Below, piece by piece: positions 23,665 to 50,708 of a stretch of DNA of 64,000 nucleotides. Location: contig NC_047025.1 in assembly GCF_902652985.1 (NCBI RefSeq), positions 29,326,001-29,390,000 on the forward strand, in the 5' to 3' direction. Numbering within the stretch: position 1 is the first letter of the stretch; each line of letters starts with the position of its first letter. The DNA is from Pecten maximus. Lineage: Eukaryota. Made by a program: the position numbers and the translations under genes. The notes beneath the pieces are model-generated. The model did no database searches and was not told the DNA's origin. It saw only the letters and a list, made by a program, of their open reading frames with translations.

Positions 23665-26600
23665 ATGGCGGCCTCCATGGATTCGGACGAAGAAGATTCG
23701 TTTGTCTCTCTAGGCAATGCTTTAGAACAAATTAACGAAGGTGAGTGAAACATGGATGAAGAAAACTGTTTCAAACTAGTCCTTTAATGGTTTTGTGTAT
23801 TCATGTCTCTACGTCAATGCCATATTTGATCAAGACATGGATATGTACATTCCTGCTGGGACTCTGTCACTGTGTGTTTCGGTGCCGAATGAATAACATA
23901 TTCTAAACCAATGCGTTTCGGTTCCATGGGAAGGCGTTTCTGTATTTTTGGAAGAAATCAGTTTCCAGACCCATCCATTCAATAACACACTTTTGAACCA
24001 CAGGTACTTGGGTCAGGATTTTATAAAATAATCACATTGCCCTCGTGAATAAAAAATAAATAATGATATTTAATGCTCTTGTAATAGGAGTGGAAAAATG
24101 CACGGCCAGACCGGGGTTCGAACCCGGGACCTCCGAACACTAGCCGGATGCTCTACCGATTGAGCTACCTGGTCGCCGATGATCGACCCGGTCCAGTTCC
24201 GCTACACTAGTACTCTTCCCTCCTATTTTTTTAAGTCTTCGACCCCGAAGATTCACAACCCAGGTGTCGGGTATCCCCTTGTCAAGTATTCACCTCACTT
24301 GAAACAAGGTTTGGTCACAGGCACCAAATGTAATAGGAGTGGGAAAATGCACGGCCAGACCGGGGTTCGAACCCGGGACCTCCCGAACACTAGCCGGATG
24401 CTCTACCGATTGAGCTACCTGGTCGCCGATGATCGACCCGTTCCAGTTCCGCTACACTCTGGCTTCACCCAGGGTCGATAAACGAGTGGAATCAATTAAA
24501 AAAAATAAAATCACTAAAAACTACATTCCTTAAAAACCATGCCTCCTCGATTGGTATCATTAGTTATTGACAGCTTTGGATGTGATTCTTGACCCCAGGT
24601 ACTGTGTGCTGAACCAGGGTCTTTCATTATTTTTTTAGAACGGATTGGTGTGGCATGTACATAGTATTAATATGACGTTTCTTTCACTCAGCTATCAGAC
24701 AGAGCATGCTTCTATCACGCTGGACACTCGGGGTGACCGTTCACAATTTTCTGTCGGTACATGTACACTTGACAGACATGTTTTTCCCCATTCACAATTC
24801 TTTCACCTTTTGTCATAAGCGCCTAGCTGCGATAATGTAGCTCTGGACGACGGGCAGACAATTTCTGACAGATGGTCGTCGGAGAGCAGTGTAGACAGGG
24901 TATGATTATTTGTTCTAATAAGCGCCCAGACTAAAATCTGAGGTGATGATTACCACCACCTAGGATTTTAGTCTGGGCGCTTATGAATATATTGAGAGTC
25001 TTGATTTGAAACTAATTTGGGAAATCACAAGAAATATTGAGAGTAAGTGTAAAGAGCCACCAAAAGAGCCCATTCTCTAAAGAACCTCCCATATAATGTC
25101 GGACTATATGACACTAGGCTTACTTAGTGCACTGGAATACAGAAGAGACCGCAATGAGCCAGTAAAGGTTTTTGAAATAATTAACAACTTTGACATACGT
25201 GAAAAAGATAAACTATTCACCTTTGCACAAACAACAACTTGGGGAAACAATAAAAAACTATTTAAAAAACAGCAGAACCAGGGTCACCCAAAGCATTTTT
25301 AGTAGAGAGTGGTAGATTCTTTGAACTCCATTAATTAATATAAGCTTCCTAATTCCATAGTAGTCCCAACTCTTACTGTTTTAAATCTCAGCTAAACACC
25401 TTTTGGAAAAATATGCTACAAGTACATTGTATTTTCTATATCAGATGAGTCTAGAAAGAAACTGGTGTTTGCTCAGGAGCAACAAGCCAAGGATAGTAGA
25501 GGTCGTCCTCGGTTCCATGGAGCATTTACAGGAGGCTTCTCAGCTGGCCACTTCAACTCTGTGGGATCCAAGGAGGGTAAGTTAATTGTCAGGACATAAG
25601 TATTAAACTGAGAGAGAGCAGCAACATCTATTCTAAATACCCCACAAGTCTACCGTCTAGGTCCAAACGATATTCCAATCACAATATTTAGATAATTAGA
25701 TAAAGACAACTAGAGACACTGACAACTAACACAGAAAGTTCAGCAATTCATAATGACTAATAGATTGTTTACATCTGTCAAGACATACAACTGGGTGACT
25801 TGATATGAGGCAAAACTCCAACAGCGACTAATTTATGTCGAATTTAGGTTGTGTAATCAAACAGTCAGAATATCTGAAGCCTAGCAGATGAACCACAACA
25901 CATGTTTATGAATATAGCTGGATGTTGGTTCGTTAAGAATCTCTCCATCTGGAGATTTTTTCTCTTCTGGTTGTATAGATATTCAGAATAACAATATCTT
26001 GTCTGTTTTGTCTGGTACCAGAAAAAGAGTATATCCTCACCAATTGTAATTATTTAAAATAAAAATGTTGGTTGGTAAAGACTGTAATATATCCATAGGA
26101 GAAATGAATCAAATGTGTTACAGTTTTAGCCATCTGAATTAACAGTAGGATAAACACCTCTTGATGGAATGTTGTTTTTATTGACTTTCTTAGGTCTACC
26201 AAAATGGAAACCAAGCTTCAGGATATGGGGAATATGAATTTTCGAGAGAAAAATGTGTAAAACAATGAAATATCTAGTGGTATTACCAATAACTTATACA
26301 TAATTTTCCATTTATTCCTGTGTCAAACTTAACATTGTCTAGAGGTATAAGCCAACCTTGTGTGGTTCTGTCCAGGTTTCAGGCCATCAACTTTTGTGTC
26401 GTCCCGGAACAAGAAGTATGAGGATGAGGAACAAGGGCAAAGGCCAGAGGACTTCATGGATGAAGAGGTAATATTTTTTTTAGAAAGCCTGAATTATTCT
26501 TCAGCTTTGCTTACTGTGCTTACTGTTTGTTTTAACAAAGGTGAAACAAGGTAGATTTTTGGTTCCTCTCCACAATTTCCTCTTTTTCTTCTTTTGTTCT

Positions 26601-46600: not shown

Positions 46601-49470
46601 TTTGTAATATCCTGGAAAATTATGTTGCTTACACTCCAATTTTACAATAATGAATTTTAATTGGTAGCAATAAAAAAAAAAATCTTGTCTGGAATTCAGC
46701 TTTTTGATGAGCATTATCTTTCTTTCTTTTTTTGTACCCAGGACAATTCAACTTAACATAAAAGAATTTGGCCCACTTACAATTATATTATCTGAAATTT
46801 GATAATACAATATATTTATTTGGGCATAAAATATTTTCAATCAACCAGAGGATTAGATGATTCAGTGCTGATGTTGAAATCAGTTTATATTTTAATGCTC
46901 CATTTTACATTTCATGGCTGAAAATCAATATTTCATGAAACCCATGTAACATGATCCAAAGAAATTTAAAGTTTATCTTGATCTTAGCAAGCTTTATAAT
47001 CATATGTGGCTTGACACATAGATTACATACAACATGTAAGCAGTGGGTTTTAATTTCCCTGGGCATTGTGCTTGTTAAATTGCATTGCCTTTCACAGCTT
47101 TCACTTTCTGAAACATTTAACTACACAGCTGTACAAAGAAACAAACTACTTATAAAAGCCAAATCCTAGGCCTCATGTGCAACAAAAGCCCTTTGTTGGT
47201 TTTTAAATAAAATTACTGTTTATTCTAACAACAATACAGTGGAGGTTTTCTGCTACATAATAAATATTACTTTGAAACAGTTTTTCAGTACAATCATCAG
47301 CTACTAACTTTTCATATAAACAAAAACATAATATTAAGAATGTTAAAATTGTTTTAAAACTGAAGCAAGGCAATTCTGCAAACAAAGCAAAAATAGAATA
47401 CATTGCAATTGTATAGAAATAAAATAGAATACTATCATGGTACGTACTATATATATATATTCACCTTTCTAACACATGTAAAATGTGAAGTATTACAGTA
47501 ACTGTTACTGATTAAATTCATCCCTCCTCTAATTATCTCTCGAGAAATTTGCAGAATCATGAGATATTTGCAGAATAAATTTGTTAAGGAGCATGGATTC
47601 CATTTGGATTCTATTTCAGATCATGATCAGAGTTTATATTGACAGTCATAACAAAAAGTCTCAATTAGGTTAATTAAGCCAGCTTCGGTTTCCACACATT
47701 TGTTCTGTAAGAACAGTAGTAAGAATTATCTAAAAGTTATGGTATTGGTGTCACCAGTAATTGCCAGTGGCCTGTAGGTAGCTGCGATGTCGTAGCTCAT
47801 GATCATGATGACAAAAATTTTAATGACAGGCGTACGCGTCGTCAGGACGACAGAGCTACAATTGGGTCGACTCATGAAGACCAATGTAGCAACTCTTCTA
47901 TATGTCGAAATAGTGCAAAAACATAATTATTTCTGTATGATTTGGCCCAACAATTTCCCGCAAACATTGTAGGATACAATACATATTGCAAATATTAAAT
48001 ACATTGAGAAATAACCTAAATGCGACATTATATTATTCATAGTTTTATTTACGTTTTTGGACCTGACTGGTATTGCAAATGCATTACCATAAACCCTTAA
48101 AATTGGTATGATATAACAACTTAGTTTAGGACATGCGGTAATGTCGAACATGGCCTATACTAATAAATGTTTGTATTAACCGTAAAAGCGAGAGTATAAG
48201 GTAACCTTACTAGCTCAGACTAGCAGGAATTTCCCTTTAGCCCGGTGGCAGGATGTTTGTATTGAGAGTGAATTTAAAGGTCGGTAGTTCGAAGCCCAAC
48301 ACAGGAAGGGCATTTTTCATTACTCCTTATATATTAGCTTCCTATTACAGATTTGGTGCTATTGACCACTCCAAGTAAAACCTATAGGAGATTGAGGGGC
48401 TTCCTTGAGCTAAAGAACCTGGGTTGTGGTTGTCTTCAGGGGCAAAGACTTTGTGAAGGAGGGTGTAGTGTAAAAGTAGATAGTATAAGGCCACATAACT
48501 AGCTCATGATCAGACTAGCGGGAATTTCCCTTTTGCCTAGCTAGTGATGGGATGTTTGCCTTGAGAGCGAATTCAGATCGCTAGTTCGAAGCCCGACAAA
48601 GGCAGGGTATTTTTCATTACTCCTTCCTATTACATTATAAATACAGAATTTGAAATATTGATAACTTTAAGAGCAACGAAGTCTGACAAATATTGCTGAA
48701 GTGATTCACTCTGGTGTTGCTACACTGGGGCATATGGAGGCCAATTCATACCCTGCCAGTGCATTAGCTAAAGGCCTGGTATGAATATTCATACTAGCCA
48801 GGGTACATCATCTAGTTGTGATGCGACAGATGAGTTTATATATGATACAAGTTATCAGTAAATCAAGCATTATTAGGCCCTTTACAAAAAACTTTCATAA
48901 TTTTATTGTTTTTTTTTTTTTTAAACATCAAATGATCAGAGACATATATATACAGATATATATGTCTCTGAAATGATGTATGGATTGCAAATACAAAATA
49001 TAGCTATAACAATCAAATGTTCTCGAACATAATCTATAAACATGTAATTGAAGCTAATTAGTTATTGTATAGACCAATCCATTTCAATATGTTTCTTGTT
49101 AGCTAATTAAGAGTTGAAAGATCCGGGTAAAATACTAGTAATACCTATATCAGTATATATATAAGCATATTAAGAAATGTAGGCTTCTATCGCAGGCATG
49201 CACGTTACAGTTTTGCATAGCATACAACTGGGTATTATGAATTTCTTATTCTAGGAATATCTTCAGTCAGATCGAACTGATGCAGTTTCGAGGGAAAACA
49301 AAGCATGTTTGAACTTGCTATCCAAAACTTCCAGACCTAGCCTACCTTGGCCAGGTAAAATATCTATCATTAGACACAAAACGACGAAAAAAACTTACAA
49401 AGGCTGTCAGGTCCTGGATGTTCTTGGGGTCGGCATTGTTTGCCATGTAATCTTTGCCGTAGTCTGCCAT
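43602..49470 (-). CDS. HSBP1: Heat shock factor-binding protein 1, 3 exons, 74 aa
   Basis: Exons 49470-49399, 44351-44285, 43687-43602 give [74 protein letters not shown]. Not in the ORF track. Confidence 0.95.
43688..44284 (-). other. U12-type (minor spliceosome) AT-AC intron
   Basis: 5' ATATCCTTTT at 44284, branch point TCCTTAAC at 43705-43698, 3' AC at 43689-43688. Removal restores the HSBP1 frame. Confidence 0.95.
48181..48634 (+). mobile_element. Second, older TRIM family with degenerate tRNA-like LTRs, in HSBP1 intron 1
   Basis: LTRs 48181-48349 and 48469-48634 ((T/C)GTAAAAG..CCTATTACA), B-box AGTTCGAAGCC in both, PBS TTTGGTGCTATTGACC (48352-48367), purine tract GAAGGAGGG before the 3' LTR. 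TSD not preserved. Confidence 0.85.
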
Positions 49471-50181
49471 ACCTTCTCCTTCTTTGGAACTCGATGTTGT
49501 TCTGACAGTCAGGCAAGATCTTAACAGGAAGTGATTAACTTTTGATTACAGCGCATGCGTACTGAAAACATGAAGAGGTCCATAAAGGGGGCATCGACTT
49601 TGTTACCTGCAGCAGGTAGCCCATGGCGCTATCCAATGGAGTCTTTGAATAATGAACTTTTAGAAATGGCGTGTTTAGTTTATCTCGAGTACGTAACCGT
49701 ATTGTGAACAACAAGTGTATACATATTAGAAATATATACATCAGATCCCATCTCTACACATGTCGACACAAAATTGCATCACTTGAATTGTTTATAGGGC
49801 AATGAGAAGGAGTGTTATACATATACAGTGACACGGAATTGTGTTATGGTATAGGTCCGTTTAGTGCTTGTTGACAGGAGCACGGACTTTTACTAAGTCG
49901 GTGACTAGGGTCAACTAAGAAACTAGAATTTTAATATTCTAGAGACAGAGGCCAGTCTCATAGTCATTATCCACATTGGTTTGCTCAGGGATTAGTTACG
50001 TGCATTTATATGCATGTACATTAATTACCGTTGTACGTACATATACCATTAAAGGTAATCAAGACCATTTAATACCGACGATTACTATTTTATAGTGTCC
50101 CTTCACTGAGTATCCTGTTGCAGACGCTGTCACACAATATTAGCCACACTATGGAGCGCCGTTTTACTATTTATTCCCATT

Positions 50182-50708
50182 TGGTGATATCACCTATTCA
50201 AATGAGTGATATCACCTATTCGAATAGGTGATATCACTTAAGAACTTTTTAAAGTGATATCACCCCTATTCGAATAAGTGATATCACCTATTCGTTTCAT
50301 TAAGTGATATCACCCATTCGAATAGGTGATATCACTCATTCGAATAGGTGATATCACTTATTGAAACGAATAGGTGATATCACCAATTCGAATATCACTT
50401 CATGAAACGAATAGGTGATATCACTCATTCGAATAGGTGATATCACTTATAAAATTTCATAAATGATATCACCTATTCGTATAGGTGGTATCACTTAAGA
50501 ATATTTTTAAGTGATATCACCTATTCCAATTGGTGATATCACCTATTCGAATGAGTGATATCACCTATTCGAATAAGTGATATCACCTATTCGTTTCATT
50601 AAGTGATATCACCTATTCGAATAGGTGATATCACTTATTTGAAAAATGAATTGGTGATATCACCTATTCGAATAGGTGATATCACTGATTGAATAGGTCA
50701 TATCACTG
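50182..50708. repeat. Array of about 22 GTGATATCAC palindromes separated by 11-19-bp spacers (mostly CTATTCGAATAG)
   Basis: Read directly. The basic 22-bp unit is two abutting palindromes. Confidence 0.92.

Follow-up and report, generated by a model that had tools for sequence, protein, structure and literature searches.

Two short, gene-less LTR elements in the 64,000-nucleotide stretch of Pecten maximus DNA analyzed here (the window) carry, just ahead of the polypurine tract (PPT), an internal motif whose 5′ half is probably a second tRNA-His box that likely completes a split primer-binding site (PBS), to judge from sequence comparison. At the element near 48 kb the word in question, GAACCTGGGTTGT, is the exact complement of tRNA-His positions 43–56 (in our numbering), as given by the tRNA-His genes of the same genome. 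The match runs from the variable loop through the 5′ T-stem into the T loop. The first-pass annotation had described the two elements as families of tRNA-LTR TRIMs with a common motif. Both are real two-LTR TRIMs, and a direct read located the internal motifs where it had placed them. Their kind is Helenus, each having TG...CA LTRs, a length under about 1.3 kb, tRNA-like boxes, a PBS and a PPT, and the 48-kb family is already published. The parts of the 48-kb element are as follows.

48181..48349, forward strand: 5′ LTR of a Helenus-4_PeMa copy (family A), read directly; published LTR consensus matched by eye
about 48237-48248, forward strand: tRNA-like A box in the 5′ LTR, by eye
48286-48297, forward strand: B box in the 5′ LTR, by eye
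48313-48317, forward strand: T5 run in the 5′ LTR
48354..48368, forward strand: putative PBS, complement of the tRNA-His 3′ end plus one extra base (Fig S2C of PMC10886601, as far as available)
48369..48409, forward strand: family-specific spacer, a predicted stem-loop between both tRNA-binding segments, from cofolds of better-kept copies
48415..48427, forward strand: candidate second tRNA-His box GAACCTGGGTTGT, a 13-nt Watson-Crick complement (0 of 5000 shuffles)
48432..48449, forward strand: pre-PPT hairpin, in the family a 7-bp stem with GGGG loop, here with 5 bp left
48455..48468, forward strand: PPT, read directly
48469..48634, forward strand: 3′ LTR with TG...CA ends

With an interior of 119 bp and a total length of 454 bp without a coding region, this element is by all appearances a decayed copy of the catalogued gene-less family Helenus-4_PeMa. 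It resembles that family, in the published material available (PMC10886601), in LTR, interior, His-type PBS with an extra base and 4-bp target site duplication (TSD), and together with its 29 fetched relatives it corresponds by eye to the available consensus in both LTR and interior. The bulged tRNA-His PBS of Helenus-4_PeMa (Helenus, TRIMp3) was already drawn with its extra base in Fig S2C of Kojima 2024 (PMC10886601, seen in part). In the 48-kb copy the 5′ LTR starts with CG and not TG, the LTR pair is 84.5% identical at ungapped columns, the TSD is lost (flanks TAAC and TTAT), the PBS contains two transitions and the predicted spacer stem-loop has decayed. Neither ARAGORN nor Rfam calls a tRNA at its LTRs, though A and B boxes are visible by eye. 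The LTR 3′ end GCATTTTT, originally taken as common to both elements, is a copy-level mutation at 48 kb; it occurs in 1 of 35 parsed family A LTRs, and GTATTTTT is the reading in 22 of the 35. A retrozyme or ribozyme-bearing TRIM was considered and rejected, with no Rfam match up to E 1 in 48100-48700. Elsewhere in the window, palindromic repeats form a cluster at 50180-50690 and a long tandem array with a 34-bp unit runs from about 10890.

The element near 24 kb lies on the reverse strand and is better kept, with an LTR pair 98.4% identical, an interior of 122 bp and a length of 377 bp, again without a coding region.

24457-24460 and 24076-24079: target duplication AGAG, 4 bp
24329..24456, reverse strand: 5′ LTR of the family B element; ARAGORN call tRNA-Thr(AGT)
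24312..24326, reverse strand: putative His-type PBS plus one extra base
24277..24309, reverse strand: spacer with predicted stem-loop
24255..24265, reverse strand: candidate second tRNA-His box, 11 nt perfect here; extends to 14 nt in 24 of the 29 parsed copies of the family
24236..24251, reverse strand: pre-PPT hairpin, GGGT loop
24213..24224, reverse strand: PPT
24080..24206, reverse strand: 3′ LTR of the family B element

The proposal of a His-type PBS with a one-base insertion thus holds for both elements, with the qualification that the inserted base sits at different positions in families A and B. ARAGORN reads both family B LTRs (24102-24175 and 24351-24425) as tRNA-Thr(AGT), and such copies would inflate tRNA gene counts, a problem pointed out for rust fungi in the available part of PMC10886601. 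As had been reported, the LTR bodies of the two elements do not align convincingly and the interiors do: 90 of 2000 shuffles align as well as the LTR bodies, whose marginal similarity lies at the B box, vs. none for the interiors, which beat all 2000.

A search of the genome yielded 1278 first-look candidates with the 48-kb query and 1893 with the 24-kb query, in line with the high genomic abundance originally suggested; 40 were scored per element. Scored relatives are 74–81% identical in family A and 93–96% in family B, and family A is evidently old, family B young. Exact 4-bp duplications flank 20 of the 26 family B copies with both ends parsed, and two clear cases were found among family A copies. 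The combination at 24 kb, a Helenus-2_PeMa-like LTR with a His-type interior, is absent from the five PeMa families listed in the accessible part of PMC10886601. Helenus-2_PeMa and Helenus-1_ArIr, both Lys-primed, share a near-identical LTR and the same hairpin stem with the 24-kb family but differ from it in their Lys PBS and Lys boxes. We sampled further families, namely C/D (His, found via a hairpin variant), E (Lys-CTT, via the PBS) and F (via the hairpin). Interiors were parsed by pattern and the rest dropped, giving 18 of 30 loci for A, 29 of 30 for B and 18 of 20 each for C/D, E and F; sampled loci include tandem neighbors and both window copies. Among families A–E of this genome LTRs and interiors appear shuffled, families A and D for instance being 77% alike in the interior vs. 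60% in the LTR. Pieces of the family A LTR, 68–76 bp long, occur in tandem arrays, and complete elements occur in head-to-tail arrays with common LTRs (array loci L028, L029 and L088; L003/L022, L059/L060 and L143-L145).

The second box was recognized by a longest-complement test in which the first 20 interior bases were masked and 5000 tRNA shuffles served as control. Outside the PBS, the longest perfect tRNA-His complement measures 13 nt at 48 kb (0 of 5000 shuffles) and 11 nt at 24 kb (3 of 5000); against tRNA-Lys-CTT the longest complement is 6–7 nt only. In the genome as a whole, the 14-mer GAACCTGGGTTGTG has 361 matches, its reversed control has 16, and Helenus elements contain 29 of the 30 loci that were fetched for it, so that the enrichment check named by the first-pass annotation came out in favor of the motif. 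An exact 12-mer of the box is found in 24 of 29 copies of family B, 16 of 18 of C/D and 5 of 18 of the decayed family A, where 13 copies lack it, and in none of the 18 copies each of families E and F. Family E has two words complementary to tRNA-Lys-CTT, one for the T arm and one for the anticodon arm, each in 14 of 18 copies. When duplex energies were compared with 1000 shuffles, those as good numbered 8 for A with His, 4 for B with His, 12 for C with His and 5 for E with Lys-CTT. Ten of the 11 other family-tRNA pairings, drawn from three to four control tRNA types only, gave 197–847 of 1000, the non-cognate exception being family F with tRNA-Pro (11 of 1000), by chance or otherwise. Taken by itself, the exact-word test gives the E–Lys pairing weak support (162 of 5000). 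In predicted cofolds, PBS and box pair with the tRNA together while the family's own stem-loop stands between them, and shuffling the box costs 11–16 kcal/mol, with 0 of 100 shuffles as good in each of four sequences. All pairing was computed for unmodified RNA, and on that footing we infer that box and tRNA-His pair in reality.

A contrast is provided by families B and E, whose LTRs are 92% identical between real copies and whose interiors are 54% alike; the box thus follows the primer, not the LTR. Since the Lys-primed LTR twin lacks the box and has tRNA-Lys boxes, a split primer-binding site is indicated. The His families represent few independent events because they have a common ancestry. 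The same comparison weighs on the idea that the box pairs with the tRNA-like T-arm of its own LTR and so joins the ends for strand transfer, as CYC5/CYC3 do in Ty1. About 12 pairs are possible between the family B box and the T-arm of the LTR in the same element (−21.3 kcal/mol, vs. −27.5 with tRNA-His), and the tRNA-complementary word of Ty1 does work by direct 5′-3′ pairing, according to the parts of PMC5371799 and PMC4974528 available. However, in family A pairing between the box and the LTRs of the same element is poor (−14.3 and −12.4 vs. −28.0 with tRNA-His), and family E, with an LTR nearly that of B, has no such box, which leaves pairing with the element's own LTR quite unlikely.

Cross-species statements are based on published consensuses read by eye. 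Among the 15 published His-primed bivalve families in the material available, 11 retain 9 nt or more of the box and need no more than one G-U pair for it, and four have a mismatched box; a His-like word was also seen by eye in two non-His families of the same partial source, 5_SaGl (Ile) and 1_TeGr (Pro). Published fish Helenus consensuses have, by eye, a 43-nt interior with a full 18-nt His PBS, the second box being absent; their interior holds a 12-nt word complementary to a word of the own LTR.

The PBS itself appears to retain traces of priming. A genome search with the perfect His PBS pattern gave 59 matches, vs. none in controls, and we looked at 30 of the 59 loci. Two of them (L070 and L073) are complete family B elements in which the 18-nt PBS segment has been swapped for exactly 18 nt of tRNA-His complement; among family B-type PBS as a whole (n = 44), 30 have the extra base, four have none and two are fully replaced. 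Reverse transcriptase stops at the methylated A58 of the primer tRNA. A replacement of exactly this length would be expected if the primer end had been copied during plus-strand synthesis, and the two cases at L070 and L073 support putative priming by tRNA-His. An 18-nt PBS and the second strand transfer have been described (PMC6088434, available in part). At seven of the 30 loci (L062, L063, L065, L067, L074, L078 and L088) a Helenus-like LTR end is followed by 17–20 nt of perfect tRNA-His complement, beyond which the sequence is unrelated or deleted; these seven may be misjoined plus-strand strong-stop products. For the Lys-primed side, our first tRNA-Lys pattern recovered Lys-CTT genes only and a looser pattern recovered Lys-TTT. 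In a targeted search the family F PBS proved to be a full 21-nt match to tRNA-Lys-TTT, and family F has no significant box for tRNA-Lys-CTT or tRNA-His. A distal Lys-TTT box in family F, at best seven pairs including a wobble, was not counted. The PBS of the Helenus-1_PeMa type (L163-L182 and L215-L222) matches 21 nt of the own-genome Lys-TTT, where Fig S2C, in the part available, aligns Lys-CTT with a gap.

Another reading is that the box is a neutral relic: reverse transcriptase would once have copied a long stretch of tRNA-His, and the middle of the copy would later have given way to a stem-loop. Box and PBS do line up as parts of a single antisense tRNA-His, and read-through into tRNA-His occurs here, with 25 matching bases at L068 and 20 at L065. 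Yet the box is exact in families with LTRs hardly more alike than shuffled sequences (A vs. B 50% identical; shuffled mean 45, maximum 52), it is also present in the oyster and scallop consensuses available, and the Lys families carry boxes for another tRNA and another arm. We therefore regard a neutral relic as very unlikely, whereas a read-through relic may be how the box originated. The reading of the 5′ half as a second tRNA-His box is the one that we carry forward.

The 3′ half of the motif is a different feature. Before the PPT stands a hairpin with a stem of 7 bp and four loop bases, mostly purines, and in 16 chosen copies from six families 91.4% of its cells are paired vs. 33–48% for slid controls. 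Covariation in the stem, which the first-pass annotation had proposed to look for, is present, with three of seven pairs changing on both sides; it rests on two or three events, and the hairpin had itself served to find families C/D and F. The TCTTC/GAAGA hairpin of the original description is perfect in the 24-kb copy but carries two transitions at 48 kb, where its fold is no better than that of shuffles (z 0.13). Stems of the same layout were seen by eye in 14 of the 15 published His families available, in several Lys families, three nemertean and several wasp consensuses. A genome scan for hairpin plus PPT gave 236 matches vs. five in controls, and all 39 loci examined are family F TRIMs. 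The tetraloop hairpin is absent from the 11 loci of long His-PBS candidates, and looking in autonomous elements, as the first-pass annotation had suggested, brought up no such hairpin in those examined. In three autonomous elements whose 3′ LTR was located, the pre-PPT hairpins are different ones (z −4.2, −1.5 and −1.1), only one of them significant. Interiors folded alone do no better than shuffles (z 2.21 and −0.54), so there is no sign of one stable global interior fold. By eye, the pyrimidine tail of the LTR could pair with the PPT; base composition alone would give such pairing.

These results bear on the original interpretation of the whole motif as a packaging, dimerization or RT-recognition signal. 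A protein-read packaging or dimerization signal with an incidental tRNA match would account for the hairpin half, which persists in both His and Lys families, with three of seven pairs changed in a compensatory way and 91% vs. 33–48% pairing, and which resembles purine-loop hairpins before the PPT in oyster, scallop, nemertean and wasp consensuses, as far as these are available. It does not account for the 5′ half, which matches tRNA-His exactly and is missing from Lys-primed families that keep the hairpin; furthermore, the hairpin loop is not self-complementary, and the tetraloop hairpin occurs in 0 of 11 long His-PBS loci and, among the 39 scan loci examined, in TRIMs throughout. One signal spanning the whole motif is therefore unlikely: the 5′ half is better read as a tRNA-His box, which comes near the RT-recognition option, than as a packaging or dimerization signal. 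The hairpin taken alone may have a packaging role. Our guess, offered with reservations, is that the hairpin may be recognized by the Gag or RT of the partner element.

Five pol-bearing loci have a His PBS (L061, L069, L085, L089 and L183). In four of these elements a tRNA-His box of 10–15 nt lies upstream of the PBS, no more than 150 nt away, and in the fifth such a box lies in the 3′ LTR; a tRNA-His complement of at least 10 nt occurs in 1 of 1500 random windows. These boxes are in the LTRs and mostly complementary to the anticodon arm, 59–132 nt before the PBS, and three of the elements also have a 6-nt variable-loop match directly after the PBS. A 12-nt D-arm match to tRNA-His was seen at L090. 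At L079 (contig C7, near 33728050) a family B LTR and an 18-nt His PBS are joined to 53 nt of pol-element leader and an inverted B copy; the leader piece is 92% identical to pol-bearing L061 (L061/L188). This single chimera would fit a template switch inside a common particle, and one such Helenus-Gypsy junction suggests a possible partner. Another locus, L186 (contig C10), is of Gypsy type, with protease-RT-RNase H-integrase order and a 4-bp target duplication; its third open frame encodes 222 aa without a Pfam match, and related frames occur in L183 and L184.

Based on these features we propose the following course. Pol III likely transcribes the element RNA from the tRNA-like LTR, and the RNA likely enters particles of a His-primed Gypsy element. 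There the last 14 bases of tRNA-His would pair with the short bulged PBS and positions 43–56 with the box, the family-specific stem-loop between the two sites holding PBS and box together; of the last 33 bases of tRNA-His, about 27 would thereby be bound and about six, in the T loop, left free. Such two-site binding would load the primer or activate initiation, standard LTR reverse transcription would follow, and insertion would create the 4-bp duplication. The tetraloop hairpin before the PPT would be a separate conserved structure. We infer the Pol III transcription, the identity of the partner and whatever function the hairpin may have. In the 5′ LTR, the B box is followed by a T4-T5 run that could stop part of the Pol III before the PBS. 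Contigs of four runs, three of them guessed to be RNA, cover the LTR and part of the interior and carry no start, end, strand or level.

Bipartite arrangements of this kind are known from Ty1 and Ty3, in which a short acceptor-stem PBS is followed by downstream segments complementary to the T arm, the Ty1 segments being up to 28 nt apart (PMC5371799 and PMC4974528, in the parts available). As in these elements, the second segment here is complementary, by sequence, to the T arm of the same putative primer tRNA. Ty1 and Ty3, as covered there, use tRNA-iMet, are autonomous and have been tested by mutation; the present elements would use tRNA-His or Lys, have a 120-nt non-coding interior with segments about 46 nt apart and are known from sequence alone. 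Drosophila gypsy also has a second site, 11 nt long, that complements its primer tRNA at the anticodon and T stems (Gabus 2006, PMC1635307, available in part), but there it lies 6 kb from the 5′ PBS; according to the same partial source, that site binds tRNA and is not needed for cDNA synthesis. By analogy, tRNA binding need not mean a priming role. In the literature covered, with subscription papers and Repbase reports largely outside its scope, we found no description of a second tRNA site for Helenus or other TRIMs, and none is described in the accessible portions of the Helenus text (PMC10886601), PMC6934838, PMC12859917 and PMC13570524. The Helenus text, in its accessible part, proposes Gypsy as the partner, examines complementarity from LTR to PBS only and makes no mention of a pre-PPT hairpin or of packaging. 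What is added here, a primer-matched second tRNA site with genomic footprints, appears well supported by sequence as a probable new instance of a known mechanism.

As an element, the 48-kb copy is unremarkable, being decayed and already catalogued. What keeps a TRIM dependent on an autonomous partner has been stated as not known (Kojima 2024, PMC10886601, in the part available). With its primer-matched second site and its covarying hairpin, the 120-nt interior would provide a short list of cis elements to mutate, and 18-nt PBS replacements together with chimeras would offer a sequence-only route to confirming primers and nominating partners. Few elements (Ty1, Ty3, gypsy and retroviruses) have been tested for extended tRNA binding, and to these the present families add natural primer switches. 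More broadly, in a tentative picture that we hold with less than even confidence, animal Helenus elements may be minimal priming machines, in which a split site within a 90–120-nt interior unwinds a host tRNA and is adapted anew with each change of primer. The purine-tetraloop hairpin kept in bivalves, nemerteans and wasps would then be a signal for Gypsy Gag or RT, the His-primed Gypsy elements of the same genome would bind tRNA in several parts as well, and chimeras would name each partner.
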